In this document: piece by piece, positions 275 to 58,112 of the stretch | Position numbering within the stretch: position 1 is the first letter of the stretch | Layout: each line of letters begins with the position of its first letter | Assembly (NCBI GenBank): GCA_040387855.1 | Contig: JAZKCY010000001.1 | Location: 632,793 to 696,792, forward strand | Direction: 5' to 3' | Origin: Patescibacteria group bacterium | GTDB taxonomy: Bacteria > Patescibacteriota > Minisyncoccia > Phycocordibacterales > JAKAEA01 | Length of the DNA stretch: 64,000 bases | Notes under the pieces: model-generated | The model's database searches: none | The model's input: the letters and a program-made list of their open reading frames with translations, nothing else | Told to the model about the DNA's origin: nothing | Position numbers and translations under genes: made by a program

Positions 275-598
275 ATGATTTTAATTACTCACATTATTGC
301 ATCTTTCATAGGAATTATTGGAGCATATCTTGAAGGTTATGCATTCTTCAAAAAGCTGCCTGGTGTTCAGGCTATTGCTACAAAAATAGCATGGATAGGC
401 CTTATCATTCTTTTTATCACAGGCATCTTTTTGTTTTTGGGTGATATTCCAAAATATACTCAGTCTGTTAAATTTATTTCAAACATGTCTGTATTGGCAA
501 TTCTTATAGTGAATGCACTACAAAGAAAAAGCACACGAACTGTGTGCATTTCTCTAATCTGTTGGACCTGGATTCTATTTATCGCTGTGTTCGTCTAA
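275..598 (+). CDS. small polytopic membrane protein (hypothetical)
   Basis: AT-rich part of track ORF 122-598. Uses the internal ATG at 275 and has 3-4 hydrophobic helices. No clear SD. Overlaps the convergent RR gene by 24 nt. Confidence 0.35.
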   Translation: MILITHIIASFIGIIGAYLEGYAFFKKLPGVQAIATKIAWIGLIILFITGIFLFLGDIPKYTQSVKFISNMSVLAILIVNALQRKSTRTVCISLICWTWILFIAVFV

Positions 599-973
599 TG
601 CTGTTTTAATATCCTCTATTATCTGATCGAGTCGATAATCTGCTTTTGTATAATAATTATTTACTCCTAATTTCAAGTATGAAGTTACTTTATCTTGGGT
701 TGCTGTATTTGAGACTACAAATATTGGTATATTTTTCCACGCATCATTATTCTTAAGTTTTGCAACTAGATCTAAACCATTTTCTTTACCGAGCAAATAG
801 TGATCAAGCCATATTACAGAAATATTTCCTACATCTGTGAGATACGCAATTGCTTGATCTACAGAACGTGCAGACAATACATCAAAACCTGTAATTTCAA
901 GTTTCTTTTTTATTGCTTCAAGAAGCGGACGCTCATCTTCTAGTACCAATACTGTTTTGCGTGATTCTGCCAT
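575..973 (-). CDS. single-domain response regulator (CheY-like receiver)
   Basis: Receiver hallmarks are VLVLEDE (acidic pair), IWLDHYL (phospho-Asp) and VVSN. No output domain. Confidence 0.85.
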   Translation of the reverse strand: MAESRKTVLVLEDERPLLEAIKKKLEITGFDVLSARSVDQAIAYLTDVGNISVIWLDHYLLGKENGLDLVAKLKNNDAWKNIPIFVVSNTATQDKVTSYLKLGVNNYYTKADYRLDQIIEDIKTALDEHSDK

Positions 974-988
974 AAAGATAATTATTAT

Positions 989-2842
989 TTATGATAATCC
1001 TTTGACTCCTTCTTTCTTTTTCATACCCTTAAGTGGTAATGTAACGGTAAATACTGTTCCTTTATTTTCTTCTGACTTAAAACTAATCTTACCACCTGAT
1101 TGTTCAATAATTGATTTTACTATATAAAGCCCAAGTCCGGTACCATCTGTTTCTTTTTCTCGAACATTATCTGCTCTAAATAGTTTGCTAAAAATCTTCG
1201 ATTGCTGCGCTTTTGGAATACCGTATCCTGTATCAGCTACTTTGATTTGCAAAGAAGATTTATTGTTTGAAATATCAATAGTTACATTACCTTTTGGTGG
1301 CGTATATTTGATTGCATTGGTAAGCAAATTTTGTAGCACAATGCGAATTAACTTTGGATCTAGACTTATCAACGGAATATTCTCTGCGTATTTTTTATCC
1401 ACCATTACTTCCCGTGTTTTTATCATCGGGATAAGCTCAGTAAGAAGACTTTCAGATATTTTTGTAATATCTGTTGGTTCTGGCTCGACAGCAAAAGTCC
1501 CCAAATCAATTCGAGAAACATTGAGTAATGCATTTACTAGTTCAACCATACGTTGGTTACCTGTATATATTTCTTGAATATATTGAGTTTGATCTGGAGT
1601 TAATTTTCCAGCATCTCCCGCAAGAAGCATTTCAGCATACCAATTAATAGTAGAAAGTGGAGTTCGTAATTGATGTGATGCAAGAGATACGAATTCTGTT
1701 TTTGCACGATCGATCTCTCTCTCTTTAGTAATATTCTGGGTAGTTCCTAAAAGCTTGATTGGATTATTATGTTCATCAACCACAACTTTACCCTGTGTTC
1801 GGAGCCAACGTATACTGCCATCTTTTAGATTGATTCGATACACATTGTCATAAGGAGCGTGAGTCTTAATAGCTCTTTCTACATTTTCTTGAGTAACCTT
1901 TCGATCATCTGGGTGAATAAGCTCTGTGAATGTCTCTGGTGTTAATTCTCCCCCCTCAGGTGTACGTTCATGAAGCTCAAACATCATATCCGACCAATCA
2001 AATTTATTTGTCTTAATATCCCATGCATAGTTTCCAATCTGACCAATCTTTTGAGCATCAATGAGTTCTGCATCTTTCACTTTGAGAGATTCATTTATTT
2101 TCTCAATATTAGACTTTGACTCTTCTAAATCCTCCAAAAGATTCATCATAGCTTTCTTAGTCTTCTGTAATGTTGTGTTTTGCTTTACTACCTGATCTTG
2201 ATTTGTTGAAGCTATTCGGGTCTCTTCCTGTAAATACGAATTTAATTCTTTCAGTTCTTTAGTTGTATTAATTATTTTTTTCTCAAAATTTTCCTGAATG
2301 CTTTGATAAAAATAGACAAGCAATGTCACTGCAATTAAACTTGCTACCATCTGTCGGATAACGACAAGTGGATATGCAAGTGTAATAATTTCACTTGCTT
2401 GAGCAAATGAAGCTACTATAGTAATACCTATCAACGCACCAACCCACATAATGCCGTCCTTTGTACCTCGTAGAAAAAATGCTAAAACTGGAAACGTGAA
2501 ATACCAATATATTCCAGTACCCTCAATACCTCCTGAATAAAGTAGTGATATCAAGACAAATATCATAATTCCAAGTGCACGATTTGCTGCTTGTCGAGGT
2601 TTTTTCTGGAAATGAAAAATAATTATATTAGATATTAGAAGCGCGGCAAATACTAACTCTAGTGTACCCATACTTTTTAGAGTATCTATGTGGCTTATAC
2701 CAAATATAGAAAGTGAAAGTATTCCTACAATAGAAAAAGCATTTACAAAGATAGTATGACGCTGTTCGGTGTCACTATATGTTTGTGGCAATCCATTGTG
2801 GATATATTTTTTCCACAAAGATATGAAATTGCTATATATCAT
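989..2842 (-). CDS. sensor histidine kinase (polytopic membrane anchor, coiled coil, PAS, HisKA, HATPase_c)
   Basis: N-terminal ~190 aa has 5-6 hydrophobic helices. H-box is SHQLRTPLSTI. N- and G-boxes are LLTNAIKYT and GTGLGL. Confidence 0.9.
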   Translation of the reverse strand: MIYSNFISLWKKYIHNGLPQTYSDTEQRHTIFVNAFSIVGILSLSIFGISHIDTLKSMGTLELVFAALLISNIIIFHFQKKPRQAANRALGIMIFVLISLLYSGGIEGTGIYWYFTFPVLAFFLRGTKDGIMWVGALIGITIVASFAQASEIITLAYPLVVIRQMVASLIAVTLLVYFYQSIQENFEKKIINTTKELKELNSYLQEETRIASTNQDQVVKQNTTLQKTKKAMMNLLEDLEESKSNIEKINESLKVKDAELIDAQKIGQIGNYAWDIKTNKFDWSDMMFELHERTPEGGELTPETFTELIHPDDRKVTQENVERAIKTHAPYDNVYRINLKDGSIRWLRTQGKVVVDEHNNPIKLLGTTQNITKEREIDRAKTEFVSLASHQLRTPLSTINWYAEMLLAGDAGKLTPDQTQYIQEIYTGNQRMVELVNALLNVSRIDLGTFAVEPEPTDITKISESLLTELIPMIKTREVMVDKKYAENIPLISLDPKLIRIVLQNLLTNAIKYTPPKGNVTIDISNNKSSLQIKVADTGYGIPKAQQSKIFSKLFRADNVREKETDGTGLGLYIVKSIIEQSGGKISFKSEENKGTVFTVTLPLKGMKKKEGVKGLS

Positions 2843-4131
2843 TGCTTTTTATATTTTGCTATTTCCTTCTTCAAATCAGACATTTTTAATTCACGATCGA
2901 GCATAACATTATTCAATAGCTCCAACTCGGCACTTCTATCACGCAACGAAACATTAATCTTTTCTATTTCTTCAGTTCGTTCCTTAACTTTCTTTTCTAG
3001 AGTGATATTTGCAGCATTAATCTTTTCAGACATACTATTAAACACAGCTGCTAACGTACCGATTTCATCATTACCACTAAACGGCACTTTTGCAGATGTA
3101 TCCCCAGCACCCATTTTTTCAAGAGTCTTAGTAACAATCTTTATTGGAATAAATACTTTTCGATCAATAATCCACCACAGAATGATTCCAAACACTCCTA
3201 CGATCATCGTAATATAGAATGTAAGTTGTCGTATAAGCGAATCAATATGAATAGCAGCCAAATCTTCTTTGATTGTTGCGATAGGTACAGATACAGAAAC
3301 ACGCCATTTTCTTTCAGGAGAGAGATTAACTGGCGCAGAGGCTCCCACTTTTTCTTGAGAATCAAAACCAAATCTTGTAACTTTTGATACCCCTGCTTTT
3401 ATATCGGCAATTGTTTTTTCAGGAGGTGTACCATTTGTAACCAAGCTTTGAAATTCTGGAGATGCAATATTTTTTCCAATCAGTTCTGTTTTATAGTTGT
3501 ATAAAATAGAACCATCATCATCATACAAGTTTATAAACCCATCTTTTGCAAATTGAACATTTGAAATATATTGCTGCTGAATGTCATTTAGATAAATAGC
3601 CCCTCCTAGAGTTCCTAGGAATTCTTTTTCGTCACCAAAAACAGGTACATGCACAGCAACGAGAAAGCTTGTTGCTCCAGCTGGTTTTATAGATCGGCTC
3701 ATAACAGGCTCATGAAGAGGATCTTCAAAAATTTTGGTTATGTATGGGCCCAATTTAGAAGCTTCTGTTCCAACAAGTGCTCTGTTTACTGAACACTTAA
3801 AAGTGCCGTCTGCATCCACTCGTCCCAAGTTTCCGAGTTTGGTCTTACCTCCTTCCTTAATTTGATCAAGTTTTGCATTACACTCATCGGTATCTCCATA
3901 TTTAATTTCAGGCAACTCAGAAATAAAATAAAGTTGTTTTTCAAGTGAAAGGATTTCAATTTCAATTGTTTGAGCAACCTGACTTGCAATTAGTTTTTCC
4001 TGTTCACCATAATCAGTAATGAGATTATCAGTAATCTTATTCTTTATATAATTTGATGAAATCATTCCACCAATAATAATAAGGACTATGACACTTACTG
4101 TTATTATAATAAAGAGCGTACGTTTGTTCAT
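2839..4131 (-). CDS. membrane sensor module (TM, periplasmic Cache-like domain, TM, HAMP-like linker, coiled coil) without output domain
   Basis: Hydrophobic helix at the N-terminus and again at ~aa 300 (ITMIVGVFGIILWWII). The ~270-aa extracytoplasmic segment between them is Cache-like. C-terminal is a coiled coil. Its start overlaps the downstream HK gene by 4 nt (ATGA). Confidence 0.7.
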   Translation of the reverse strand: MNKRTLFIIITVSVIVLIIIGGMISSNYIKNKITDNLITDYGEQEKLIASQVAQTIEIEILSLEKQLYFISELPEIKYGDTDECNAKLDQIKEGGKTKLGNLGRVDADGTFKCSVNRALVGTEASKLGPYITKIFEDPLHEPVMSRSIKPAGATSFLVAVHVPVFGDEKEFLGTLGGAIYLNDIQQQYISNVQFAKDGFINLYDDDGSILYNYKTELIGKNIASPEFQSLVTNGTPPEKTIADIKAGVSKVTRFGFDSQEKVGASAPVNLSPERKWRVSVSVPIATIKEDLAAIHIDSLIRQLTFYITMIVGVFGIILWWIIDRKVFIPIKIVTKTLEKMGAGDTSAKVPFSGNDEIGTLAAVFNSMSEKINAANITLEKKVKERTEEIEKINVSLRDRSAELELLNNVMLDRELKMSDLKKEIAKYKKQ

Positions 4132-4133
4132 GA

Positions 4134-5798
4134 TTACAATTCTTGGTTATAAATATTCTCTTTTGCTGGTGCAACTACGCGTAATAGTTCTTCTAAAGTA
4201 GTAATTCCATTTTTAACCTTAATCAATCCGTCATCAAACATTGAATGAGCTCCTTGTGACTTAGCCATTTTCCAGACTTCTTGAGTAGATGGACTCTTTA
4301 AAATAAGACTCTGCAATTCTGGTGTTGTATATACTATTTCAAATACAGCTATTCTTCCCTTAAAGCCTGTTGAATTACACAGTGCACATCCCTTCCCTCT
4401 ATAAAGTGTTACTGATTCATTTGAGAAATATCTTTCTGGATTATCAATAATTTTAGTAAGCTCTTGATGAGTACTTACATAGCTATATCTACATGCATCA
4501 CAAATTTTCCGAACTAATCTTTGTCCAATTACAATTTCAAGTGTTGAAGAAAGTAAGAATGGCTCTATACCCATATCTAAAAGGCGTGGAAAGGCCGTAG
4601 CAGCATCATTTGCATGAAAGGATGACAATACTAAGTGACCAGTAAGTGCTGCGTTTGCAGCTATTTCTGCTGTTTCTTTATCTCTAATTTCTCCCACCAA
4701 AATAATGTTTGGATCTTGTCGAACAATTGATCGCAACCCCTGAGCAAATGTTAGGTGACTATTCTCATTTACCTGAATATGATTTACACCTGGGATTTTA
4801 TATTCAACAGGATCTTCGATAGTTGTAACGTTTACATCAGGTCTATTGAGCATTTTTAAAATACTATAGAGCGTTGTCGTTTTTCCAGATCCAGTGGGAC
4901 CAACTGTCAAAATAAGTCCGAACGGATTTTTTGCAATCTTCATGATGAGCGCCTGATCCTCAGACGAAAGACCCAGTTCTGTAGTTGAAAGATTCTTTAC
5001 ATATTCAGACAACAAACGAATAACTATCTTTTCTCCATCAATAGTTGGCACAATAGAAATACGTAGGTCTACATTCCGATCATTATGCTTTAATCGAATA
5101 GCCCCATCTTGTGATGCAGTATGTTCATCTGTCGATAGATTTGCTCGAAGTTTTACAACACGAAGTACATTTGCATATGCGTCCTTAGGGATCTCAGCTA
5201 CTTGTTCAAGCATTCCATCTATACGGAATCGCACTCGTACAATAGTTTCTCCAGGTTCAAAGTGAATATCTGATACCTGAAATGACATAGCATCGGCTAA
5301 AATTTCTTCTATGATACTTGGAGCAACCGTCTTTTGCTTAAGAATCTCTGCAAATCGTACTTCAAGCTTTTTCTGAGATTTTAAAATAATATTCTCTATG
5401 TTTTCACTAAAAGTGTATGCATATTTTATTTTTGCTCCGGGAAAAATACGGCTAACAACCATAGGATCTAGATCCTTTGGATTATCTGTAGCAATAGTAA
5501 TCTGATTATCCTCTTTTGCGATTACTACAATATGTGAATGTCGAGCAATAGGTTCCGGTATAAGATTTATATACTCTTTAGGAACATTCTGAGGAGTTAT
5601 AGCAACAAATTCAATACCATATGATTCTGCAATGGCTTGTCCGAGCAAATCTCTTGAAAGATATTGTTCACGGATAAGGTAATCTATGAAGGAAATATTT
5701 TCTTTTTTTGCATTTAATTCAGCTTTAGTAGCATCATCAACTGAGATATAGTTTTGCTTTAAAAGAATATACTTTACATTTGCCTCATCTAATCTCAT
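4134..5798 (-). CDS. pilB: type IV pilus assembly / type II secretion ATPase (PilB/GspE family)
   Basis: Walker A is GPTGSGKTTT, with Asp and His boxes. A C-terminal tetracysteine motif (CDAC…CALC) and an N-terminal GSPII_E_N-like domain are present. Confidence 0.9.
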   Translation of the reverse strand: MRLDEANVKYILLKQNYISVDDATKAELNAKKENISFIDYLIREQYLSRDLLGQAIAESYGIEFVAITPQNVPKEYINLIPEPIARHSHIVVIAKEDNQITIATDNPKDLDPMVVSRIFPGAKIKYAYTFSENIENIILKSQKKLEVRFAEILKQKTVAPSIIEEILADAMSFQVSDIHFEPGETIVRVRFRIDGMLEQVAEIPKDAYANVLRVVKLRANLSTDEHTASQDGAIRLKHNDRNVDLRISIVPTIDGEKIVIRLLSEYVKNLSTTELGLSSEDQALIMKIAKNPFGLILTVGPTGSGKTTTLYSILKMLNRPDVNVTTIEDPVEYKIPGVNHIQVNENSHLTFAQGLRSIVRQDPNIILVGEIRDKETAEIAANAALTGHLVLSSFHANDAATAFPRLLDMGIEPFLLSSTLEIVIGQRLVRKICDACRYSYVSTHQELTKIIDNPERYFSNESVTLYRGKGCALCNSTGFKGRIAVFEIVYTTPELQSLILKSPSTQEVWKMAKSQGAHSMFDDGLIKVKNGITTLEELLRVVAPAKENIYNQEL

Positions 5799-5808
5799 GG
5801 TAAATAAA

Positions 5809-6186
5809 TTACACTACATGAAGAAACTCTTTGATTGTTTCTATTATTTTTAATAATGGCGTGTTTGATTTGATAAGATACCCCTGCGCTCCCAATTCTC
5901 TGGCTTTTTTCTCATCTTCCTGCTGACTTAAATTTGAAGTTACAAAAATAGGAGTAGTGTTACCCTTTTCCTTAAGTTCAGCAAGTACTCCAAATCCATC
6001 TTTTTTTGGAATAACAAGATCGAGCAATACAAGATCATATGAATTTGTAAGAATATGCTCTAACGCGGCTTCTCCATCATGGGCAACATCGGCATCAAAT
6101 CCAGAGCTTTTTAATTTTAATTCAAGAGCATGAGCCATTGGCTTCTCATCTTCCACAACAAGTATTTTTTTCTTTAGTTCTGACAT
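5809..6186 (-). CDS. single-domain response regulator (receiver)
   Basis: Begins MSELKKKILVVEDEKP; LVLLDL carries the phospho-Asp. The track ORF extends to 6300, but that extension overlaps a separate zinc-ribbon ORF in another frame, so I use the internal ATG at 6186. Confidence 0.8.
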   Translation of the reverse strand: MSELKKKILVVEDEKPMAHALELKLKSSGFDADVAHDGEAALEHILTNSYDLVLLDLVIPKKDGFGVLAELKEKGNTTPIFVTSNLSQQEDEKKARELGAQGYLIKSNTPLLKIIETIKEFLHVV

Positions 6187-6263
6187 GTATCGAAGTATAC
6201 CATGACGAAAACACAGTCTCGTATGAGACTGTGTATATCGTTGACTTTGATTAAAGAAATATG

Positions 6264-6431
6264 TTACGCGTGAGCTTCTTTGGCCATGCACTTCACACAA
6301 ATCTTTTGTTCAGGTCGTGTCTTAATATATTTGTTTGCACAAGCAGAGCAAACCAAAATTTCAGAACGCGTAGGCTTGTGTACCCACTTTCCATCTCGCT
6401 GAAATGTTTTTGTTGGTTGTAGTTTAAGCAT
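6264..6431 (-). CDS. 55-aa zinc-ribbon protein (CxxC-x14-CxxC)
   Basis: Hand translation gives MLKLQPTKTFQRDGKWVHKPTRSEILVCSACANKYIKTRPEQKICVKCMAKEAHA. It is absent from the ORF track (too short) and sits between the helicase and the RR on the same strand. Confidence 0.5.
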   Translation of the reverse strand: MLKLQPTKTFQRDGKWVHKPTRSEILVCSACANKYIKTRPEQKICVKCMAKEAHA

Positions 6432-6453
6432 AAACGTTATTGTTAATTAATTA

Positions 6454-7824
6454 CTAGTTATCTAAGAATGTAAGTGCAATTCCCTTCTTTCCTCCTCGTC
6501 CTGTTCGTCCAATTCGGTGAACATAATCTTCATAGGTTGCAGGAATATCGAAGTTGATCACATGTGATACACCGTTGATATCAAGACCTCGAGCAGCAAC
6601 ATCAGTTGCAACAAGAGCCTGAACTTTATTTTCTTTAAAGAGAGCAAGGGCTTTCTGTCGTCGAGACTGATTTTTATCTCCGTGAATTGATTCTGCACGA
6701 ATACCTCGTTCTTCAAGTACCTTTGAGAGCTTTTCTACTCCGTGTTTTGTACGGCCGAAAATAAGAACTTTGTTAAATTCTGGTAACTTTAAGAGTGACT
6801 GGAGTACATCGATCTTCATTTCTCCTGGTTTCAATCGAATAACGTCTTGATCAACGTTCTTTGATGTATCCTGAGTTTTAACTGAAATCTTAACAGGCTC
6901 TTTTAAGAAATCCTGGATAAGCTTTTCAATATCAGGTGAAAGTGTAGCTGAGAAGAAGAGTGTATGTCGCTGTTTTGGCATTCCGGCCATGATAAATTTC
7001 ATGTCGTTGATGAATCCCATGTCCAACATTCGATCAGCTTCATCAAGCACAATAGTCTGAAACTTAGATAGATCGATGAATTTTCTTTGGATCAAATCTT
7101 TAAGTCGTCCTGGTGTACCAATAAGGAAGTTGTGACTTCGGCGAAGATCATTGATCTGTCGGCCAATGTGAGCACCTCCCACTGCACATACTGAAAACAT
7201 TTTGAGTCCAAATGAGAACCCTCGAAATTCTTGATCAATTTGCTGAGCAAGCTCTCGTGTGGGAGCAATAATAATTACTTTCTCGTTAGGATTTAAAAGT
7301 ACTTTGTGAATAAGTGGAATAAGAAACGCTGCTGTTTTACCAGTACCAGTGTTTGCAATACCTACGATATCAGCACCTCGAAGAATATGTGGGATTGATC
7401 GGTCCTGAATAGGTGTTGGCTGTACATACCCCTTCTTTGTAATAGAAGTTTTAAGTACATCGTGGATTTTAAAATCCTGGAATGTGTGTTCAGGGACAAA
7501 GTGTTCTACCTGTTCGGTAATTACTGCTTTGTTGATAAATTTATTAGGATCAATATATTGACCCATATTTGGACGGCCACGTCGTTGACCTCCTCCATTA
7601 CCAAATCGCTGTGGGGGTCGAGAAAATCGAGATCCACTTTGTGGTCGTGATGAATAGCCTCCAGTTCGTGGAGCTGATGAATATCCAGAACTTCGCTGTG
7701 AAGATCCAGAATAACCTGGTTTTGAAAAACCTGGCTTTTGGTAACCGCCAATTCGACGGTCACTATAATTTCCTCCTCCTACACTTTTTCGTGGAGAAGA
7801 ACTTTGTGAATTTTTTTGATACAT
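6454..7824 (-). CDS. DEAD-box RNA helicase with ~90-aa N-terminal RGG/SG-rich low-complexity region
   Basis: Q-motif is FQDF…PTPIQ. Motif I is ANTGTGKT, motif II VLDEAD, motif III SAT, motif VI HRIGRTGR. The N-terminus is G/S/R/Y-rich and open in frame for 86 codons. Confidence 0.9.
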   Translation of the reverse strand: MYQKNSQSSSPRKSVGGGNYSDRRIGGYQKPGFSKPGYSGSSQRSSGYSSAPRTGGYSSRPQSGSRFSRPPQRFGNGGGQRRGRPNMGQYIDPNKFINKAVITEQVEHFVPEHTFQDFKIHDVLKTSITKKGYVQPTPIQDRSIPHILRGADIVGIANTGTGKTAAFLIPLIHKVLLNPNEKVIIIAPTRELAQQIDQEFRGFSFGLKMFSVCAVGGAHIGRQINDLRRSHNFLIGTPGRLKDLIQRKFIDLSKFQTIVLDEADRMLDMGFINDMKFIMAGMPKQRHTLFFSATLSPDIEKLIQDFLKEPVKISVKTQDTSKNVDQDVIRLKPGEMKIDVLQSLLKLPEFNKVLIFGRTKHGVEKLSKVLEERGIRAESIHGDKNQSRRQKALALFKENKVQALVATDVAARGLDINGVSHVINFDIPATYEDYVHRIGRTGRGGKKGIALTFLDN

Positions 7825-7981: not shown

Positions 7982-8275
7982 TTAGTTTCTCCAACCGCCG
8001 TTTCCACCTCCTCCACCTGTTCGTGGTTCTTGTGGTCGAGCTTCGTTAACAGTAAGAGTTCGTCCTTCGAATTCCTGACCGTTAAACATGTTGATAGCAG
8101 CCTGAGCTTCTTCATCTGTTGAATATTCAACGAATCCGAATCCCTTTGATTTTCCTGACATTTTGTCAATGATAATCTTAGCTGATTTTACTGATCCTGC
8201 CTTTGAAAATTCTTGTTCAAATGCAGCTTCTGTTGTGCCGTATGAAAGGCCTCCAACGTAGAGTCTTGATGCCAT
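7982..8275 (-). CDS. RRM-type RNA-binding protein with glycine-rich C-terminus
   Basis: RNP2 is LYVGGL and RNP1 is KGFGFVEY. The tail is RTGGGGGNGGWRN. Confidence 0.85.
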   Translation of the reverse strand: MASRLYVGGLSYGTTEAAFEQEFSKAGSVKSAKIIIDKMSGKSKGFGFVEYSTDEEAQAAINMFNGQEFEGRTLTVNEARPQEPRTGGGGGNGGWRN

Positions 8276-15682: not shown

Positions 15683-17974
15683 TTAATCCTTCTTTTTTAG
15701 AGGTAGTGTAAAACAAAATATAGAACCTTTACCCACTTCACTTTTTACCGTTAAAGTACCCTTGTGACGTTTAATAATTTGGGCACTAATATTTAATCCC
15801 AAACCAAAGCCGGAAATATTTTTTTGCTTCGAATATTCTGTTCTAAAAAATCTATCAAATACTTTTTGCTGTTCTTCTTTTGGAATCCCCTGACCAAAGT
15901 CTTCAACTTCTACAAGTATATTACCCTTGTTTTCTTTAACGCGAACTATAATCCGATCTGCCTTTGGAGAATACTTAATAGCATTAGCTAAAAGATTTGT
16001 AAGCACTTGTTCTATTCGATCTTTATCAGCACTCACCTTATGTTTTGCTAGGAGTTTATACTCAATAAGATGCGACGTTGTTGTGAGCTGAAGTGATTTT
16101 ATAATATCTCGAGCAACTTCATTCATATCAAATTGCTGATATTTAAGATCAAGCTTACCAGCATGAACCATACTCATATCAAGAAGATCATGAATGAGAT
16201 GTGAAATTCTTTCTGCTTGAGAATGAACCATACCTGCAATTTCAATGAGCTTTGGTTGATCTGAGTTCTTCGCCTGAATATTTAAAATATCAGCAAATAA
16301 TTTTAAACTAGTTATTGGGGTTTTTAATTCATGACTTGCTATACCTAAGAACAAATCTTTTTGCTGTTCTAGATTTTTACGTAATGAAATATCAATAAAT
16401 GAAGACACCATTGCATATGGTTCAGTATTGCCTTGTTCATACAATAATGTGCAGTTCACAAGAACCCATACAAGTGTTCCATCAGGCCGATATACACCCA
16501 TAACAGAATTACTCTGTGGTTGGCGAGTTCTGAGTGTTACTAGAGAAGGGCGTTCTTCTGCAGGAAATGGAGATCCATCTTCTTTAATAACTTTCCACAT
16601 AGGATCAGTGGGCAACTTACCAACAATCTGGTCATAACTTAAACCAAGTATTTCTAACGCAGCTTTATTTGCGGTTTGGACAACACCACCCATATCACTC
16701 AAAGTAATACCTTCTCCAAGCGTTGACACTACACGAGCATGATGACGTTCACTTTCTCTCAAACGTTCTTCAGTAAACTTCTTTTCAGTAATATCTATAT
16801 TAACTCCCACAACTCGCTCAGCTTTTCCTTTTTTATTGAAGAACACATCACCTTTAGCCATCAACCAACGTGTTGTTTGATTGGGTAAAATAATTCTAAA
16901 CTCAACATCATACTTGCTCTTATTTTTTAAAGCATGAGCTAGATTGTCATCAACTTTTTTTACATCCTCAGGATGAATCATTGAAACCCAATGATCATAT
17001 GATTTCTGAAATTCTCCTGGAAGCAAACCATACAATGCCTCCAACTCTGGAGTCCAAATAAGTTTATTATCTTTTATTCGCCATTCAAAAGTCCCTATCT
17101 TCCCAGCCTTTTGTGCAAGATCGAGTCGTTCCTGACTATACTGATATTCTTTGCGAGCTTGAACTTGTTCTGTAACTTCAAGACCCAAAATGATTATTGA
17201 GTCTACCTTCCCTTTTTCATCGCGCAGGGGTTGATATACAAAGTTGAAATAGGCATCTTCGAACACTCCAGTCCCGTGTCGATCAATAGATGCATAAATT
17301 TCATTTCCATATACAACTTCGCCTTCATCGTATACCCGCTCAATAAATTTAAAATATCCCTGCTTATTTAATTCAGGTACTGCGTCTCGCATTGGTTTAC
17401 CTAAAATATCTCGTTTACCCCACAACTTTTCAAACATGGGATTAAAAAGCTCTACAATGCCTTTACGTCCACGCAAAATTGCAATTAGTGCTGGTGCTTG
17501 AGTAAACACAGAATATAAACTCTGGCGAACCTCTTCTGATTTAGCTAATGCTTCACGCTCAAGGGCACGTATATGATTGTGTTCATCTACAGCTTTTTGC
17601 CGTTCTGTTCTATCACGAATTATTTCACTAAAACCAATAACCTTTCCGTGAGTATCTCTCATTGGATACAAAAACCCCTTTGCCCAAAACTTTTTTCCTC
17701 CTTTTTTAAAGTACCAGCCTTCCAGCTCTACTACTTTTTCTTTAAGGGCTTGTTTTGAGAGCTTACTAAATCCATCTTTTTGTTTATATTCTTGAGAACG
17801 CAGTGTAGATACATGCTTTCCAATAATTTCTTTTCGTTTATAAGAAAAGACTTCCTGAGCACCATCATTCCATGTCAAAATAATCCCTTCCTTTGAAACA
17901 GCAAAAACTGCATAGTTGTCGAGACTATCTACAATATCTTTATATATATTAGGCAATGCTGTAGGATCATCCAT
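15683..17974 (-). CDS. cytoplasmic multi-PAS sensor histidine kinase
   Basis: No TM segment. At least 3 PAS/PAC modules. H-box ASHELKTPITSL; N-box LANAIKYS; G-box GFGLGL. Confidence 0.9.
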   Translation of the reverse strand: MDDPTALPNIYKDIVDSLDNYAVFAVSKEGIILTWNDGAQEVFSYKRKEIIGKHVSTLRSQEYKQKDGFSKLSKQALKEKVVELEGWYFKKGGKKFWAKGFLYPMRDTHGKVIGFSEIIRDRTERQKAVDEHNHIRALEREALAKSEEVRQSLYSVFTQAPALIAILRGRKGIVELFNPMFEKLWGKRDILGKPMRDAVPELNKQGYFKFIERVYDEGEVVYGNEIYASIDRHGTGVFEDAYFNFVYQPLRDEKGKVDSIIILGLEVTEQVQARKEYQYSQERLDLAQKAGKIGTFEWRIKDNKLIWTPELEALYGLLPGEFQKSYDHWVSMIHPEDVKKVDDNLAHALKNKSKYDVEFRIILPNQTTRWLMAKGDVFFNKKGKAERVVGVNIDITEKKFTEERLRESERHHARVVSTLGEGITLSDMGGVVQTANKAALEILGLSYDQIVGKLPTDPMWKVIKEDGSPFPAEERPSLVTLRTRQPQSNSVMGVYRPDGTLVWVLVNCTLLYEQGNTEPYAMVSSFIDISLRKNLEQQKDLFLGIASHELKTPITSLKLFADILNIQAKNSDQPKLIEIAGMVHSQAERISHLIHDLLDMSMVHAGKLDLKYQQFDMNEVARDIIKSLQLTTTSHLIEYKLLAKHKVSADKDRIEQVLTNLLANAIKYSPKADRIIVRVKENKGNILVEVEDFGQGIPKEEQQKVFDRFFRTEYSKQKNISGFGLGLNISAQIIKRHKGTLTVKSEVGKGSIFCFTLPLKKKD

Positions 17975-25274: not shown

Positions 25275-26051
25275 TTAATCCTCTTCAGGTGGAGGTGCTT
25301 CTGCAGTTACGTGTCCCGCAAACGAAGTGTTGTAAATTTTAACATTATCAATTAATCCTGTAAAAAAATATACTGTTGGATGATCACTGTATCCTATTCG
25401 AATCGAATCTTGCCAATCAAAATTAGACATTGTATTGAGACCTTGCCCTACTTTATCACCATCAATATATAATTGATGAGGTCCTAAATTTCCTCCAAAA
25501 CTAAAGAAAGCATAGTGCCAGTTGTTGTCATTGTATGTTTTGGGTGAACAAATTGTTTCATCTGTAGCATCTCCCCAAACACGTGAACATACTGCTCCAT
25601 TTTGCATTCTAAGATTTCGATCATTACCTCCTCCATCTACTTCAAATAATCCTCCATTTAAAGCACTAGTTTTAAACCATAATCCAACACTAAACTCTGT
25701 TTCTGAAACATTCATTGGCACAGAAATAAAATTATCACTTCCATCGAGCGAAAGTGATTTACCAGCTAGGCTTGAAGTAGGAACATCTGATGAATAAACA
25801 GCTGATGTAATAGTTCCGGTGTAGACACCAGTTGTATCAACTACCGAATCATCAAAATTAAACTGTGCAAGAAGTTCATCACCACGTGCATTAAATACAG
25901 ATCGCTCAAACTGCTGAGCAGCAGCAACACGAGCTTTAATACGAGCATTATTTAGTACAACAACTACTATGCTTGATAGAACACCAATAATAGCAATGAC
26001 CACTAAAAGTTCGATGAGTGTAAATCCTCTTTTGTGTTTATTTAAAACCAT
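25275..26051 (-). CDS. type IV pilin-like protein with C-terminal LamG/ConA-like lectin domain
   Basis: N-terminus is KRGFTLIELLVVIAIIGVL (prepilin-peptidase site plus E5 helix). The C-terminal ~160 aa looks LamG-like (LSLDGSDNFISV…WHY…GLIDNVKIYN). Confidence 0.8.
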   Translation of the reverse strand: MVLNKHKRGFTLIELLVVIAIIGVLSSIVVVVLNNARIKARVAAAQQFERSVFNARGDELLAQFNFDDSVVDTTGVYTGTITSAVYSSDVPTSSLAGKSLSLDGSDNFISVPMNVSETEFSVGLWFKTSALNGGLFEVDGGGNDRNLRMQNGAVCSRVWGDATDETICSPKTYNDNNWHYAFFSFGGNLGPHQLYIDGDKVGQGLNTMSNFDWQDSIRIGYSDHPTVYFFTGLIDNVKIYNTSFAGHVTAEAPPPEED

Positions 26052-26127: not shown

Positions 26128-27972
26128 TTATGTACTTATAGGAATTTTAAAACAGAATGTAGTTCCCTTCTTTGAGGATGACTCCACCCAAATTTCACCC
26201 TTGTGACGAGTAATAATTTCTTTTGAAATAAAGAGTCCCAACCCTAATCCCGGAAATGTAGTTTTTGATGATAGACTACTGCGATAAAATTGATCAAATA
26301 TTCGTGGTAGATCTTGTTTTGAAATTCCAATACCAAAATCTTGAACCATACAAGTAAGATACCCAGACTTGCAAGATGTCTTAATTACTATTTTTTGAGC
26401 ATTAGGTGAATACTTTATTGCATTAGTAATAAAATTTGTTATTACCTGACCGATTCTGTCTCTATCACCCTTAACATTTTCAGATTTTGCCAACTGTAAA
26501 ACAATTTTATGATTTTCAGACATATGCTGAAGTTCATCTACTGTCTCAATAAGAAGCTCGTTGAAATCAAAAAATCCAGAATTAAACTGCATTCTTCCTG
26601 ATTGAATTTTTGTAACATCAAGCAAATCAGTAATTAGTAATGAAAGCTTATTTACCTGAAGATCCATTTTATCCATAAGCTCTGCAGCTTTCACATCACC
26701 TTTATTTAAAAACATTTTACTTAAAACCTGCCCATACATTTTGATGCTTGTTACAGGAGTTTTAAGTTCATGACTTGCGATACCAAGAAAGTCATCTTTT
26801 TGACGTTCAAATTCTTTGCTTGCAGTAATATCTTCGTGGACAAGTACAACTTCTCGGATCCTCCCTTCATCATCTTTTACAGGATATATATATGCTTGCA
26901 CCCATTTTGTTACGCTTGAAGTAACATTTTTTATTGTCTTTTCTGTTTCATATTTAATAGCAGGAATCATTGTGGCTTCACCAGAAAAGCCTTTTTGTAT
27001 ATATGGCATGACTCCAGTTTCAACCAATTGCTTATCATTGAGCATATTGTATCCTTTTAGCATATCTAGATTGAGCCCCCACAAACGCTCCCATGCTTTA
27101 TTAACCTGCAAAGTGTATCCATCAGGTGACAATATTTGTGTGCTCAGCAATGATTGCTCAATCATCATTCTATATTTACGCTCACTATCTTTAAGCATTT
27201 CTTCGGTTTTCTTTCGTTCAGAAACATCTGATGTAATTGCAACGATAGAAACTACTTTTTTATTTTCATCAAAAAGCGGCGATGCTGAAACGTTTACATG
27301 AATTTCTGATCCATCTTTCTTATATCTCACTAAGTCTTTTGAGAATGGCTTTCCCTGTAATAAACCCAGCATTAAATCCTTAAATTCCGCAGCTTTTTTC
27401 TTTTGAGGCAGTGGGAGTAATTTTCCCAGAACTTCTTCTTGAGTCCATCCAAAGATTTTTTCACATACTGGATTCCAAAGTAACACACGACCATTCACAT
27501 CGACTACATATATAGCCAGTGGTGAAGAATTAATAATTGTTTCAAGCGTACTATTTGATTGTAATAATTTCCTTTCAAATTCTTTCTGAGTAGTAATATC
27601 ACGAATTGTACTTTGTACAGCTCTCTCTCCGTTGTATTCCAAGCTTATAGATGCAAGTTCAACATCACGAATATTTCTTTTAAGCGTTACAAATTTTTCT
27701 TGAACAATATTTGATTCTGTTTTCTTACCCGCCATAAGAGCACCCATCCGCTGTTTAACAAGCTCATGGTAATCAGGATGAATAAACTTTAATACATGTT
27801 TACCCAATACTTCCTTTTGGCTCTTTGCTTGAATAAGCTGAAGCGCGGCTTGATTTGCATAGACAATAAGCCCTTTCACATGAATTGCAATAGGAAAAGG
27901 TGAGATATTTAGAAGTTCTGTATATCGCTTATCAGTTACCGGAATTTTTTGAGTACGAATCTTTTTATTCAT
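26128..27972 (-). CDS. cytoplasmic multi-PAS sensor histidine kinase
   Basis: Three PAS modules. H-box ASHELKTPVTSI; N-box ITNAIKYS; G-box GLGLGL. Confidence 0.9.
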   Translation of the reverse strand: MNKKIRTQKIPVTDKRYTELLNISPFPIAIHVKGLIVYANQAALQLIQAKSQKEVLGKHVLKFIHPDYHELVKQRMGALMAGKKTESNIVQEKFVTLKRNIRDVELASISLEYNGERAVQSTIRDITTQKEFERKLLQSNSTLETIINSSPLAIYVVDVNGRVLLWNPVCEKIFGWTQEEVLGKLLPLPQKKKAAEFKDLMLGLLQGKPFSKDLVRYKKDGSEIHVNVSASPLFDENKKVVSIVAITSDVSERKKTEEMLKDSERKYRMMIEQSLLSTQILSPDGYTLQVNKAWERLWGLNLDMLKGYNMLNDKQLVETGVMPYIQKGFSGEATMIPAIKYETEKTIKNVTSSVTKWVQAYIYPVKDDEGRIREVVLVHEDITASKEFERQKDDFLGIASHELKTPVTSIKMYGQVLSKMFLNKGDVKAAELMDKMDLQVNKLSLLITDLLDVTKIQSGRMQFNSGFFDFNELLIETVDELQHMSENHKIVLQLAKSENVKGDRDRIGQVITNFITNAIKYSPNAQKIVIKTSCKSGYLTCMVQDFGIGISKQDLPRIFDQFYRSSLSSKTTFPGLGLGLFISKEIITRHKGEIWVESSSKKGTTFCFKIPIST

Positions 27973-28034: not shown

Positions 28035-28565
28035 TTATTTCTTCTTTTTTGTAGCTTTCTTAGGTTTGATTGCTTTCTCTACAATCATTTTGAGTGTAGA
28101 TGGTGCTTGTTGAATTTCTTTAACAGATTCAGATGGTTTAGATACATCTTGTGATTTAAAGAATTTTTCAGCAAATCCAACAAGTTTATCTAGCTTTGCA
28201 TTTACAGATTCAAGCTGTCGTTTAAGCTCTAGAGTGCTTTCTGCAGGACGCTCAACACGTGTTTCCACATGAGGTGCTCGAGGTGCTTCTGATCGGTCTC
28301 GAAAATCTTTGAAATCTTTTCGTGGAGCAAAATCTCGTCGTTCGTTTCGGTCGCCGCCTCGGTCATTTCGATCATTACCTTCTCCTCCTCCCATTGTCTT
28401 AAAACAATCACGGCAGTACACAGGCTTACCATTGGTAGGCTTAAAAGGTACTTCTGTTGGTCTTCCACAATTACTACAGGTTGCCTTATGCATAGTAATT
28501 TCTGGTCGTCTGTTGTTTCCACCTTGAAAACGATTCCCTCCTCGGTCTCTGTTAAAATTTTTCAT
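28035..28565 (-). CDS. CxxC-x17-CxxC zinc-ribbon protein with R/G/D-rich low-complexity region and Lys-rich tail
   Basis: The spacing is C30-x2-C33-x17-C51-x2-C54 (CSNCGRPTEVPFKPTNGKPVYCRDC). RGG/DRN repeats follow. The C-terminus is KPKKATKKKK. Confidence 0.6.
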   Translation of the reverse strand: MKNFNRDRGGNRFQGGNNRRPEITMHKATCSNCGRPTEVPFKPTNGKPVYCRDCFKTMGGGEGNDRNDRGGDRNERRDFAPRKDFKDFRDRSEAPRAPHVETRVERPAESTLELKRQLESVNAKLDKLVGFAEKFFKSQDVSKPSESVKEIQQAPSTLKMIVEKAIKPKKATKKKK

Positions 28566-31899: not shown

Positions 31900-31965
31900 A
31901 CTCTCTGGAAAGATCTGACATCGGAGCGTTTTCGATGATCAGAAAGATACGTAAGGGACGATACC

Positions 31966-32739
31966 ATGACCAAAGCCACGGCTTCAGCGTCGATTCCCAC
32001 CACCACCACTCTCAACCTCCGTGACTTCGAGGTCCCCCACCCGACCAGCCGCGACAACTTCGTCGTCAGCGTCGGCATCGGGACCAAGAGCCTCGACGAC
32101 AACGGCTTCGTGACCGACAACATGCCGTTCATCGAGCAGGTCCAGCGGCGGGCACGTCGCCACACCTCCGAGGGAGTGGCGCACGCTATCGGAGACATGA
32201 CCATCAGCTACCTCGACCGCCGCATCCGTCAGGTCGTGATCGAGGTCAAGAACACTGCCAGCCGCTTCACCCTGAAGCAGCCGAAAGTGCTCGAGCTCGA
32301 CCCACAGCCCAGCCTGCCGCAAGGGTTCGACACGTTCCGGATCGATGGCCTCTCTGTGGAGGCAGAGCTGAGCGACAACCACGTGTGCGGTGGGTACGAC
32401 GGCCAGTTCCGCTGCGACCTGAGGTATACTGCCGCCGACGGGAAGAACCGCTCCACCGCGATCACCGACGTGATCCGACGCGCCTTCCAGAGCAAGACCT
32501 ACACGGCGAGCTGCGAGCAGCTCACCCAGGGCATCGTCTACCAGGCATGCCAGGTCTTGGGCAGCCAGGGGCTCCACGTCATCGGTCGGGTCTACAACCT
32601 GACCGGCTACGCCGAGACCCACTGGAACTCCAGGCTCGTGGTACCGGAGATGCCGCGAGAGTCAACCTGTGGCGAGGTGCGCGAGTCCAAGCCGTCCAGG
32701 TCCTCGAGCTCCAGCGAACGCAGCATGAGCTGGTGCTGA
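31966..32739 (+). CDS. hypothetical protein encoded in a high-GC island (foreign composition)
   Basis: I counted 40/60 G+C at 32041-32100, against 16/60 at 601-660. SD TAAGGGA before the ATG; a host-like terminator follows. The protein is not Lys/Ile/Asn-biased like the neighbours. No motif recognised. Confidence 0.6.
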   Translation: MTKATASASIPTTTTLNLRDFEVPHPTSRDNFVVSVGIGTKSLDDNGFVTDNMPFIEQVQRRARRHTSEGVAHAIGDMTISYLDRRIRQVVIEVKNTASRFTLKQPKVLELDPQPSLPQGFDTFRIDGLSVEAELSDNHVCGGYDGQFRCDLRYTAADGKNRSTAITDVIRRAFQSKTYTASCEQLTQGIVYQACQVLGSQGLHVIGRVYNLTGYAETHWNSRLVVPEMPRESTCGEVRESKPSRSSSSSERSMSWC

Positions 32740-32777
32740 TCAGGCTCTAACGTGGACTCTTCGTTCTTCAACCCAGT

Positions 32778-32808
32778 GCGTAAGCTCCCATAGCTTATGC
32801 ATTTTTTA
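32778..32808. terminator. bidirectional intrinsic terminator
   Basis: GCGTAAGCT-cccat-AGCTTATGC 9-bp stem followed by ATTTTTTATTT. Lies between the convergent genes. Confidence 0.65.
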
Positions 32809-34156: not shown

Positions 34157-34229
34157 GGAAGTAGTATAGCAAAATAATTCAGGTATAAAAAAAGCACAGA
34201 ATTACCCGTGCCAACAACCAACAAGAACA

Positions 34230-34925
34230 CTACAGCACGATCACCACGATGGGCACCGTCTTCTGCCACCCGATGACCAGCTTCCACCCCTTGCGGAAGC
34301 ACACCTTCGACCACGGCCCGGCCGCTCGGAGCAAGCCGTTGACAGTCGGGAACTCGTGAGCGATCGACTGCATCAGCAGCTCGTGGAGGAAAGGCTCCTC
34401 CTCGACCAGCTGGTGCATCAGATCCATCTTGCGGGATCCCAGGTGACCACGGCTGTCCAACTGCTCGTTGAGGGTGTTGAGCCGGTTGCACACCCCTCGA
34501 TAGACGCGGTAGAGCCGGCGGAGGTTCGGCGACATGACGCCGACTTCCACTTCCATGCCCATCATCTCGCGCTTAGGCCCGATGTTGATGTCGGCACCGT
34601 GCATGCGCTCGGCGACATTCTGGACCTTGTGGATCTGCGAGAGGGTGAGTTTGATGCACGTCTCCAGCGTCGCGATCTGCTCGCTGACGACCAGCGCGGT
34701 GTCGACGGATACCTGCTCGAATGGATAGCCGACGAAGTAGTTGTCGTTGGGGATGATCGTAAGGTCGACCATCCGAAACAACAACAAGGTCCGCTGTTGC
34801 CACGTGAGATTCTCCCGAAGACGCAGCAGAAGCTGATCCATCGCCTGGGTCATCACCCGCTTCCTCGGCATGAACCAGTGGGGCCTCCGTCGAGATCGGG
34901 TCTGTCTTCGCGTTTGAGTCTGCAT
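34230..34925 (-). CDS. hypothetical protein with Arg-rich N-terminus, encoded in a high-GC island
   Basis: I counted 36/60 G+C at 34561-34620. GGAGG SD 8 nt before the ATG at 34925 (MQTQTRRQTRSRRRP…). The track ORF extends to 34961 with no SD. The antisense ORF 34356-34973 has a GC-shadow composition. Confidence 0.5.
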   Translation of the reverse strand: MQTQTRRQTRSRRRPHWFMPRKRVMTQAMDQLLLRLRENLTWQQRTLLLFRMVDLTIIPNDNYFVGYPFEQVSVDTALVVSEQIATLETCIKLTLSQIHKVQNVAERMHGADINIGPKREMMGMEVEVGVMSPNLRRLYRVYRGVCNRLNTLNEQLDSRGHLGSRKMDLMHQLVEEEPFLHELLMQSIAHEFPTVNGLLRAAGPWSKVCFRKGWKLVIGWQKTVPIVVIVL

Positions 34926-35056
34926 TGCGATTCCTCCGGTTGCAGGGTTAGATTGGAACATGAGCTACGTTAGCTCAGCGGTTGAGTACGATACCATATA
35001 TATCCAACATGTCAACATGGATATATTATTGTGTCAAATTGCGATAAAATACCAAC

Positions 35057-37665: not shown

Positions 37666-38772
37666 TTACTGTCTTCGTAGCTTAATAGAAATAAATGAGT
37701 CATCAAACACACCTTGTGATCTCACTGTTCCTGAATGATCAAAATATTGTACCTGCACAGCTATTGATGTTTCCCTGTCTTTAAATGGGTTGGGACCAAT
37801 TAATAACTTTTTTGTATAAGGACCTGTTCCTAAGGTTATTTTCTCATCGCAATTTTTTCCATCTATTGATGCGCTTTGAGATGATCCATTAATACACATA
37901 AGACTCACTTCTCGTTTACTGTATTTTGCTGGTAAGGGTCCAAATGATAGCGTTATTGATCCACCGCTTTTTTCTAGTACATAATTGTTAGCTTTCAAAA
38001 GTTCAGGGTGTGTGGGACTGGCTAGTATTTCGATCTGTTGCTGATCTTGAGCAGGAGCATCAAAGCTTTGTCCACCATAGGTGATTTTATTTTTAACGAT
38101 ATTACCCTGACTATCAAGTGCCTTTACATGCAATATCTCACCTTGATATGAGTTTTCACTTGAGTACATAGAATCTGTTTTAGGAACAATAATAGTATGA
38201 ATTGTGTTTGTTGTCGTTTCTTTTAAAAGTGTTGTTACATTTTCTGGATCGATGAGAAGTCGATTTTTATCAACCCATGAAGGTTTTGTAATACTTATTT
38301 CATATTTTACAGCGCCTTTAATAGGAGAAAACACAACAATGAATGGTTTGCCTGGTTCTAAAACCTGATCGTAATTTGGCATCGCAATTATGAGATTGAT
38401 ACTTGGATCCATGCCTTGGGCCTTTAGAGCCGCATATGCTTTTTCTAGTTCTGCTTGTGCAGAAGTTAATTCCCATGCATTTTGAGCACCTGATGAAGAA
38501 GGAGTACCAGTTGTTTTTACTTCTGTTTTAATAGATGTCGTAGTTTCTTTTTGTGAAGCTGATGTTTTTGTTGAAGTAGGAGTTGTATTTGGTGTTGTAG
38601 TAGCATTTGCCCGATCACGTAATTGAACATGCTCGGTATCAGTAGTAACTATAGGATCAACAACGGGAACATTTGTATTCTGTTTTTTTGATACATAATA
38701 TGCACCCCCACCTACAGCTATTCCGATAATAATAATTATGAGTAGTGGAGCAAATCCTTTTTGGTTTTTCAT
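37666..38772 (-). CDS. N-terminally anchored secreted protein with Thr-rich linker (hypothetical)
   Basis: TM at aa 8-28 and a T/S-rich linker, then a ~250-aa globular region. Next to a pilin-LamG gene. Confidence 0.5.
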   Translation of the reverse strand: MKNQKGFAPLLIIIIIGIAVGGGAYYVSKKQNTNVPVVDPIVTTDTEHVQLRDRANATTTPNTTPTSTKTSASQKETTTSIKTEVKTTGTPSSSGAQNAWELTSAQAELEKAYAALKAQGMDPSINLIIAMPNYDQVLEPGKPFIVVFSPIKGAVKYEISITKPSWVDKNRLLIDPENVTTLLKETTTNTIHTIIVPKTDSMYSSENSYQGEILHVKALDSQGNIVKNKITYGGQSFDAPAQDQQQIEILASPTHPELLKANNYVLEKSGGSITLSFGPLPAKYSKREVSLMCINGSSQSASIDGKNCDEKITLGTGPYTKKLLIGPNPFKDRETSIAVQVQYFDHSGTVRSQGVFDDSFISIKLRRQ

Positions 38773-38835
38773 GATAGGGATATTATCCCACTAAAAAGTA
38801 AACTCAACTATTAAGATATGCACACAATAAAAAAA

Positions 38836-39630: not shown

Positions 39631-39635
39631 ACTAT

Positions 39636-39926: not shown

Positions 39927-39945
39927 AAAATCAGTATACTATATG

Positions 39946-55152: not shown

Positions 55153-55257
55153 GATTCTTTTAGTATCTCATTAAAAATAAAACACGGCTATACGTATGTG
55201 CACATAGTATGGGAATAAAAATCCCCGGGTCTTGGTAGGCTCGGAGGGTACATATTG

Positions 55258-58109: not shown

Positions 58110-58112
58110 ATA

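Follow-up and report, generated by a model that had tools for sequence, protein, structure and literature searches.

The window analysed here is a stretch of 64,000 nt from a low-GC genome (37.5% GC) of the Patescibacteria, or Candidate Phyla Radiation (CPR), and near its start a PilB/GspE-family pilus assembly ATPase is encoded among genes for a membrane sensor, a histidine kinase (HK) and two response regulators. A total of seven minus-strand genes follow one another at this locus. The first encodes a DEAD-box RNA helicase (6454-7824; Pfam DEAD 159 bits and Helicase_C 114 bits), which carries the motifs GTGKT, DEAD, SAT and HRIGR and an RG/SG-rich N-terminus of about 100 amino acids (aa), and it is followed by a zinc-ribbon-like open reading frame (ORF) of 55 aa with a CxxC-x13-CxxC pattern (6264-6431), which has no family match and is a called gene in the Logan assembly with no NCBI accession. 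Next come a response regulator of 125 aa that consists of a receiver (REC) domain only, here RR1 (5809-6186; Pfam Response_reg 78.6 bits), the intact 554-aa ATPase, here PilB (4134-5798), a 430-aa membrane co-sensor with Pfam dCache_1 and HAMP domains and no kinase domain (2839-4131), a histidine kinase with the architecture MASE6-PAS_3-HisKA-HATPase_c (989-2842; Pfam HisKA 61.6 bits and HATPase_c 103 bits), and a second REC-only response regulator of 132 aa, here RR2 (575-973; Pfam Response_reg 49.7 bits). The intergenic distances, in the order from the helicase to RR2, are 22, 77, 10, 2, -4 (an ATGA overlap) and 15 nt. An initial annotation, made from the sequence alone, had listed these seven genes with their domains, and all of them were recovered by the ORF check and Pfam. 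The start of RR1 is the ATG at 6186, which gives the 125 aa seen in NCBI MES2437076.1 and in all homologues; the mechanical ORF, which starts at TTG 6300, was rejected as too long.

The PilB sequence is identical to that of NCBI MES2437075.1, 'MAG: GspE/PulE family protein [Patescibacteria group bacterium]', on a contig of 981,549 bp. Its T2SSE match (PF00437) scores 385.5 bits against a cut-off of 24.9, and its motifs are intact, with the Walker A GPTGSGKT at G300-T307, the Asp box EDPVE at 328, the Walker B VGEIRD at 368 and the His box TGHLV at 386. The C-terminal part carries a tetracysteine zinc motif (CDAC at 433 and CALC at 471), which is typical of extension ATPases and is lacking in PilT, and among solved structures the best matches are PilF and PilB, both of them extension ATPases (about 336-346 bits), with PilT at about 100 bits. 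The protein scores below the NCBIfam equivalog cut-offs for PilB (TIGR02538, 473.6 against 675.65) and GspE (TIGR02533, 463.8 against 630.25) and below the cut-off of the ComGA model (254.6 bits, cut-off 300), so that no model assigns it to the type IV pilus (T4P), the type II secretion system (T2SS) or the Com machinery, and because of these scores the label 'PilB/GspE-family assembly ATPase' is the safest. The N-terminal domain retains the MshEN fold (29.9 bits). The cyclic di-GMP (c-di-GMP) motif of MshEN is a tandem RLGxx(L/V/I)(L/V/I)xxG(L/V/I)(L/V/I)xxxx(L/V/I)xxxLxxQ, and inspection of the alignment, which employed no motif model, did not reveal it in the window PilB or in its CPR relatives; the aligned positions read KLGDLL.../RLGEII...Q in the Alicyclobacillus PilB (locus L079 of the comparison described below) and VKYILL.../SFIDYL...S in the window protein. 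With the motif gone from the window protein, c-di-GMP was rejected as an input to PilB, and Pfam scans detected no PilZ, GGDEF or EAL genes in the window.

The signalling genes have the hallmarks of a classical two-component system (TCS), that is, a HisKA kinase with H, N, G1 and G2 boxes and receivers with a phospho-acceptor aspartate. In RR1 the acidic pair E12-D13, the phospho-acceptor D56, T83 and K106 are intact, and in RR2 the phospho-acceptor is D57, with the acidic pair, the T/S and the K likewise intact. Both are receiver domains without any output domain in Pfam, as are all four RECs of the window, and neither Sigma54_activat nor HTH_8 domains were found by Pfam in RR1, RR2 or their neighbours, which means that control by the two regulators must run via protein contacts and not via DNA binding. 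The co-sensor is built of a transmembrane (TM) segment, an extracytoplasmic dCache_1 domain, a second TM segment, HAMP and a coiled coil, with hydrophobic segments at about 1-19 and 299-317 and no kinase or other output domain. The kinase consists of a five-TM MASE6 domain, a coiled coil, PAS_3, HisKA and HATPase_c, its start overlapping the stop of the sensor gene by 4 nt (ATGA), and its boxes are intact (H-box SHQLRTP with H390, N box at 505, G1 at 537 and G2 at 567). No CheA-type histidine phosphotransfer (Hpt), CheW or MCPsignal domain was detected by Pfam in the window ORFs scanned, and the sensor ends at its HAMP domain and coiled coil.

For comparison, 80 PilB-relative loci were taken from one genome per GTDB species, the window genome not being among the representatives scanned, and seven contigs of the best protein-database matches were added to them (loci are numbered with L below). 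Among the 15 closest GTDB loci (48-56% identity), 14 carry an RR1-orthologous REC (100-136 bits) just upstream of PilB and on the same strand (L002-L013, L015 and L016), L007 being counted via a tandem HK-REC pair 534 nt upstream, as the REC adjoining its PilB has the opposite orientation. An RR1-orthologous REC was likewise observed upstream of PilB in L082, L083, L085, L086, L087 and L088, giving 20 of 21 loci in total. REC and PilB are at most 69 nt apart or overlap, by 14 nt in L086, except in L087, where the gap is 235 nt. The 15 closest GTDB loci span Parcu-, Wolfe-, Falkow-, Nomura-, Gracili- and Berkelbacteria, and the six extra loci widen this span to include Doudna- and Magasanikbacteria. 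RR1 orthologues that are 43-66% identical lie directly upstream of PilB in L082, L083, L085 and L008, and an alpha4-beta5 signature, NLSQEED...LGA..Y.VKSNTP, is strongly conserved in the RR1 orthogroup and distinct from RR2. The two receivers are only 33% identical to each other and fall into separate orthogroups, each with positional orthologues in L082 and L008; RR2 is 71% identical to the post-kinase REC of L082 and 40% identical to that of L008. RR1-PilB is the tightest and most invariant conserved pair, and by synteny across relatives, the test named for it at the outset, the linkage of pilB to a signalling module is evolutionarily conserved.

Clustering and Pfam revealed that the usual gene order in these relatives is REC-PilB-PilC, three N_methyl minor pilins, a protein designated c4, one or two pilins, in some loci a sensor, and then HK, in some loci followed by a REC. 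PilC (T2SSF), which sometimes carries an SH3 domain in the full operons, directly follows PilB in 65 of 78 loci and is at most three genes away in 70 of 78, the exceptions including the clade of the window. The c4 protein, of about 140 aa, has a fixed position behind the third minor pilin in 17 of 23 clustered loci (e.g., 14192-14647 of L002 and 15747-16151 of L085); it has no Pfam or NCBIfam match and could represent either a component of pilus assembly that has so far escaped recognition or a minor pilin that has diverged. The ancestral-type CPR operon contains no PilT, PilN/O or secretin, and matches to the ComGA, ComGB and ComG pilin models are below their cut-offs. More distant members (about 40% identity) carry PilM in addition, and their TCS genes stand as HK-REC-PilB or PilB-HK-REC-PilC, and the PilB proteins of Saccharibacteria (36-38% identity) form a separate clade that has no REC or HK neighbours and has PilM directly after PilC. 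In the Doudnabacteria locus L087, a pilin cluster contains a match (15918-17694) to 23S_rRNA_IVP/bAvd, the family of a diversity-generating retroelement (DGR) accessory protein, beside an LVIVD-repeat protein and pilins, and a DGR may diversify a pilus-associated adhesin there.

The relatives closest to the window depart from this order. The closest, P0002 (66% identity, L082), has REC-PilB-HK-REC-REC without PilC, and the second, P0003 (60% identity, L083 and L084), has REC-PilB-HK, again without PilC, while the next, P0004 (57% identity, L085), has the full operon, ending in a split sensor like that of the window. In a neighbour-joining tree of PilB, the window, L082 and L083 are monophyletic and sister to the REC-PilB-PilC clade, with ordinary branch lengths. 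We consider it very probable that the layout in the window is the remnant of a REC-PilB-PilC-pilins-HK operon from which the block from pilC to the pilins was deleted or moved; such a removal would have made PilB a direct neighbour of the sensor and kinase genes. Since the pilC-less clade sits beside full-operon relatives, the embedding of PilB in a TCS appears derived and not a new design. The trio of receiver, motor and kinase has been kept in at least three diverged genomes, and its retention after the structural genes had left, a natural experiment, argues that the three form a functional core. The suggestion of the initial annotation that pilB is under signal control thus holds as regards the conserved signalling linkage, with attachment or DNA uptake as a possible output, but the architecture is not purpose-built, being the leftover of a pilus operon that had signalling genes at both ends beforehand. 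As a separate observation, an in-frame TAG follows PilB codon 36 in L083 (4920-5033) and L084, with an ATG immediately next to it, and the L083 PilB is called as 36 aa plus 517 aa, without the first N-domain helices, in the same way in two assemblies; this TAG may be either an error or a true nonsense mutation after which translation restarts.

The split of sensor and kinase is likewise seen in relatives. The L082 kinase is a single protein of 573 aa with the order dCache_1-TM-HisKA-HATPase_c, and residues 1-412 of the window co-sensor are 45% identical to its N-terminal part, while the core of the window kinase (residues 377-617) is 77% identical to the L082 kinase and 61% identical to that of L083. 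One gene of L082 thus aligns to both halves of the window pair, and this natural fusion argues that the window sensor and kinase act in one pathway. A stand-alone sensor followed by a kinase also occurs in the outgroups L085, where a dCache/HAMP protein precedes a MASE3-PAS kinase, and L008, so the two-gene split claimed initially is genuine; L086 (16190-19392) encodes a CHASE-PAS membrane protein without a kinase, then a soluble PAS-HisKA-HATPase kinase and then a REC. The pairing of a separate kinase with an extracytoplasmic sensor that stands alone seems to be a recurring trait of these CPR pilus operons. A frameshifted pseudogene of one sensor-kinase gene was rejected, as the kinase has a five-TM MASE6 domain of its own and L085 and L008 show the two-gene layout as well.

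Three lone prepilins are encoded elsewhere in the window, all on the minus strand, and each carries a (K/R/Q)GFTLIELLVV class III signal and an N_methyl match, which bears out the three scattered pilin-like genes of the initial annotation. One is GspG-like (50026-50568), with the motif GFTLIELLVV and N_methyl and T2SSG matches, its GspG model score of 72 bits being below the cut-off, and is a candidate substrate of the PilB machine. The other two combine the prepilin motif with a Laminin_G_3 lectin-like domain in Pfam (38836-39630 and 25275-26051). A PAS histidine kinase (26128-27972, minus) lies directly upstream of the prepilin at 25275-26051, and the minus-strand region 37666-41844 contains a PAS kinase (40303-41844), a bare REC (39946-40302), a 96-aa membrane protein, the prepilin at 38836-39630 and a 368-aa protein. 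The operon of L088 has a Laminin_G_3 pilin just before its kinase, and because of this the kinase-pilin units of the window may be dispersed fragments of the ancestral operon. Several pilus loci are usual in CPR genomes (PMC12206443), which makes a PilC elsewhere in this genome plausible.

Taken together, the best explanation of the locus, which we hold with moderate confidence, is a cut-down CPR T4P (Com-like) operon in which the kinase serves two RECs and phosphorylated RR1 (RR1~P) acts on PilB. The dCache domain of the co-sensor would bind an external ligand, and its HAMP domain and coiled coil would modulate the membrane kinase, which would in turn phosphorylate RR1 and RR2. RR1~P would then bind PilB, possibly at the MshEN-like N-domain, and pilus assembly would be switched on or off post-translationally, with RR2 draining or competing for phosphate or carrying a second output. 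PilB would depend on a PilC platform and on pilins from genes elsewhere, an active pilus machine being assumed. For a direct contact between RR1 and PilB, suggested by analogy with the systems compared below, we see roughly even chances. The N-domain is, speculatively, a candidate docking site for RR1, because it is MshEN-like yet without the c-di-GMP motif. A broader version of this idea would be that across much of the CPR an RR1-family receiver took the place of c-di-GMP in binding to the MshEN-like domain of a PilB subfamily, with the kinase gating the motor directly, the second receiver serving as a sink and the trio being kept as a module; we regard it as a doubtful proposition, which, if true, would mean either that one motor serves several dispersed sets of pilins, each with a kinase of its own, or that PilB gained a signalling role of its own.

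Several findings weigh against the proposed RR1-PilB circuit. Searches with phmmer, using the sequences of relatives as queries, detected no further homologue of PilC, PilM, a PilB/PilT-like ATPase or c4 in the 64 kb, and Pfam scans of the other window ORFs found no T2SSF, PilM_2, prepilin peptidase (Peptidase_A24) or second T2SSE, so that pilC, pilM and pilT are missing around pilB in the window, as had been claimed. The 9.2-kb contig of the window in the Logan assembly (L001) adds 1.17 kb on the far side of the window start, with genes for a membrane protein and MsrA and a truncated gene of 99 aa; no pilC was found in this 1.17 kb, where the truncated gene is without Pfam data, and pilC therefore does not lie immediately outside the window on this side. 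In addition, when 5.8 billion proteins were searched with an RR1+PilB chimera, which should place any fusion of the close subfamily high in the ranking, no natural REC-PilB fusion was present among the best 120 matches, the PilB tree carries no support values, and the transcript structure is drawn from predicted hairpins.

The alternative that survives best is that control is indirect and exerted on expression, the TCS genes being merely co-expressed or autoregulated, as in PilS-PilR, and the RECs feeding an unlinked DNA-binding regulator or another target. Regulation of pilin transcription by a TCS is the commonest known link (PMC6058289), the place of the kinase in the operon varies, the absence of a REC-PilB fusion from those 120 matches agrees with it, and the two further HK(-REC)-pilin pairs of the window suggest a general association of HKs with pilins that is not specific to the motor. 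We nevertheless judge indirect control rather unlikely, since no Hpt protein or DNA-binding regulator was found in or near the unit in roughly 25 loci examined, since the four RECs of the window are output-less, and since the adjacency of RR1 and PilB is the most invariant feature, with reading frames that often overlap or nearly touch and a linkage that was kept after pilC and the pilins had left.

A different possibility is that PilB has been orphaned or re-purposed and no longer builds a pilus, either because it is decaying or because it has become a signalling or other ATPase under the TCS. Its ATPase and zinc motifs are all intact, an identity of 60-66% is kept in three diverged genomes, and its branch lengths are like those of the PilC-linked relatives, and these observations make an orphaned PilB improbable even though PilC, PilM and PilD were not found in the 64 kb or, in L083, in the 16-kb contig, the L083 frame has the TAG after codon 36, and a signalling role of PilB in the regulation of exopolysaccharide (EPS) is documented for M. 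xanthus (PMC5544727). Lone pilins with canonical prepilin signals are also present in the window, and a PilC elsewhere is plausible for the reason given above (PMC12206443).

The extent of the unit was also considered. Of the 74 ORFs in the window, 60 (81%) are on the minus strand, the co-directional run around pilB comprises nine genes, and the gaps between same-strand genes have a median of 20 nt, with 81% of them at most 78 nt; an operon inferred from co-directionality and tight spacing was thus rejected as uninformative, both being at the genomic background in the window. A terminator-like hairpin followed by a T-run (531-547, minus; scan match GCACACAGTTCGTGTGC TTTTTCTTTG) lies 28 nt past the stop of RR2, with a fold of -14.9 kcal/mol and a z-score of -3.0, and is the probable 3' end of the RR1-RR2 unit as predicted from its fold. 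In the 77-nt gap between the zinc ribbon and RR1 there is a perfect 10-bp hairpin, ACACAGUCUC-AUAC-GAGACUGUGU, followed by UUU (6211-6234, minus); the fold of the gap has -21.5 kcal/mol and a z-score of -4.88, and none of 200 shuffles was equally stable. The terminator scan did not report this hairpin, its T-run being short, and it is a possible weak terminator, attenuator or processing site between the helicase and RR1-PilB units. The helicase and zinc ribbon never adjoin REC-PilB in any relative examined, including the closest two, and for the 55-aa ORF no Pfam or PHROG match and no homologue beside REC-PilB in relatives was found. Since these two genes are not conserved neighbours and hairpins lie at both ends, the functional unit was treated as the five genes RR1-PilB-co-sensor-kinase-RR2 (6186 down to 575, minus) rather than seven, and the seven-gene unit of the initial annotation was given up. 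In the promoter scan of the window, sigma-70-like sites were rarer than in shuffles and none was convincing upstream of RR1; read-through from the helicase genes into RR1 is possible but not required. That helicase and zinc ribbon share one seven-gene operon and a function with the PilB signalling module is therefore very unlikely, for although the genes share a strand, the gaps are only 22 and 77 nt and the want of a convincing promoter directly before RR1 makes read-through possible, strand and spacing equal the background, a very stable hairpin lies inside the 77-nt gap, and helicase and zinc ribbon are absent beside REC-PilB in every relative.

Other features were observed in the window. 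RNA-binding proteins with tails rich in Arg and Gly form a set, made up of the DEAD-box helicase (6454-7824), an RRM protein whose tail reads GGGGNGG (7982-8275) and a protein in which RG-rich stretches flank a treble-clef zinc finger (zf_Tbcl_2; 28035-28565). Three single-gene, sharply bounded GC islands of 58-64% GC occur at 31901-32801, 34181-34981 and 55201-56041, and an ABC transporter gene (44809-46602) has 51% GC. The third-codon GC of these four regions is 0.88, 0.83, 0.69 and 0.67, respectively, and that of native genes 0.21-0.26, and values so far above native mark them as genuine coding sequences whose codon usage is foreign. The three island proteins, of about 250 aa, have no Pfam, PHROG or PADLOC matches and no mutual similarity, and no Rfam family was found on the islands. 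They are near-ORFans, one having a single 36%-identical homologue on a contig of 54% GC and another two distant matches among 1.84 billion representatives, and the islands may be recent transfers from high-GC donors. A defence-like island (56547-61242) adjoins a tRNA-Gln (61171-61242), which was the only hit of the Rfam scan of the window. It contains a Schlafen-type helicase (56547-58109), whose N-terminus is GIY-YIG-like and which matches Nhi and AbiO models of PADLOC, a MazG-like protein (58113-58460) and a PADLOC candidate PDC-M43 pair, with the HATPase-like B component at 59587-60648 and the A component at 60635-61141.

Few transcription factors are encoded by CPR/Patescibacteria. These bacteria are mostly uncultured episymbionts for which pili are essential in finding and binding hosts (PMC12206443), and for the timing of CPR pilus extension the locus offers a testable circuit, from an external ligand to a dCache/CHASE sensor and kinase, then to a bare receiver and the motor. 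A description of the REC-PilB pairing in CPR was found neither in a review of PilB cofactors (PMC11656802) and a study of Saccharibacteria pili (PMC12206443) nor in searches of full-text literature, whose coverage is incomplete, so that an earlier description is possible. In the Saccharibacteria, the T4P-1 and T4P-2 systems of TM7x comprise pilB, pilC and scattered pilin loci with orphan pilins, and both host binding and motility depend on these pili (PMC12206443). The likeness to the window lies in CPR pilus machinery with multiple scattered pilin loci and orphan pilins, whereas the PilB clade is separate and response regulators or kinases are not mentioned in that paper (0 occurrences). The ComG operon (comGA-GG) has the same minimal layout as the ancestral CPR operon, an ATPase, a platform and a run of small pilins, but it has no in-operon receiver or kinase, and the window keeps only the ATPase. 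By its gene order, the ancestral CPR operon resembles a ComG-type minimal operon with a receiver in front and a kinase behind.

PilS-PilR of Pseudomonas, Myxococcus and Geobacter shares with the window an HK and a response regulator within or beside a pilus cluster (pilB/pilC/pilA). PilR is an NtrC-type sigma-54 activator of pilin transcription (PMC6058289), whereas the regulators of the window are without AAA+ or HTH domains, and for want of an NtrC-type regulator the window system is not a PilS-PilR system. In the c-di-GMP control of MshEN and FimX-PilZ the input passes via the N-terminal region of the ATPase, and the window PilB keeps an MshEN-type N-domain; it differs by the missing c-di-GMP motif and by the lack of PilZ, GGDEF and EAL genes in the window noted above.

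Closer parallels were found in two chemosensory systems. In Pil-Chp of P. aeruginosa, the antagonistic single-domain CheY-like proteins PilG and PilH control T4P extension and retraction and cell polarisation (PMC10519157; reviewed in PMC11656802), the two single-domain receivers being the shared feature; it differs in being a proteobacterial CheA/MCP (methyl-accepting chemotaxis protein) system, with an output that is partly cAMP and partly polar localisation and with genes that are not beside pilB. In Tax1 of Synechocystis, only phosphorylated PixG binds PilB1, and PixH counteracts it (PMC11181946). In Tax1 one kinase, PixL, feeds two receivers without DNA-binding output, and Tax1 is the best functional analogue of the window system. 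It differs by its CheA-type kinase, MCP-like photoreceptor and CheW and by the PATAN domain of PixG, whereas the window has a classical HisKA kinase with a dCache/HAMP co-sensor, a bare REC in RR1 and genes that lie inside a pilus operon. The window system would work like Pil-Chp or Tax1 but is not a member of their family, having no CheA, CheW or MCP domain, and it would be a stripped-down, derived form of receiver-mediated control of the pilus motor.

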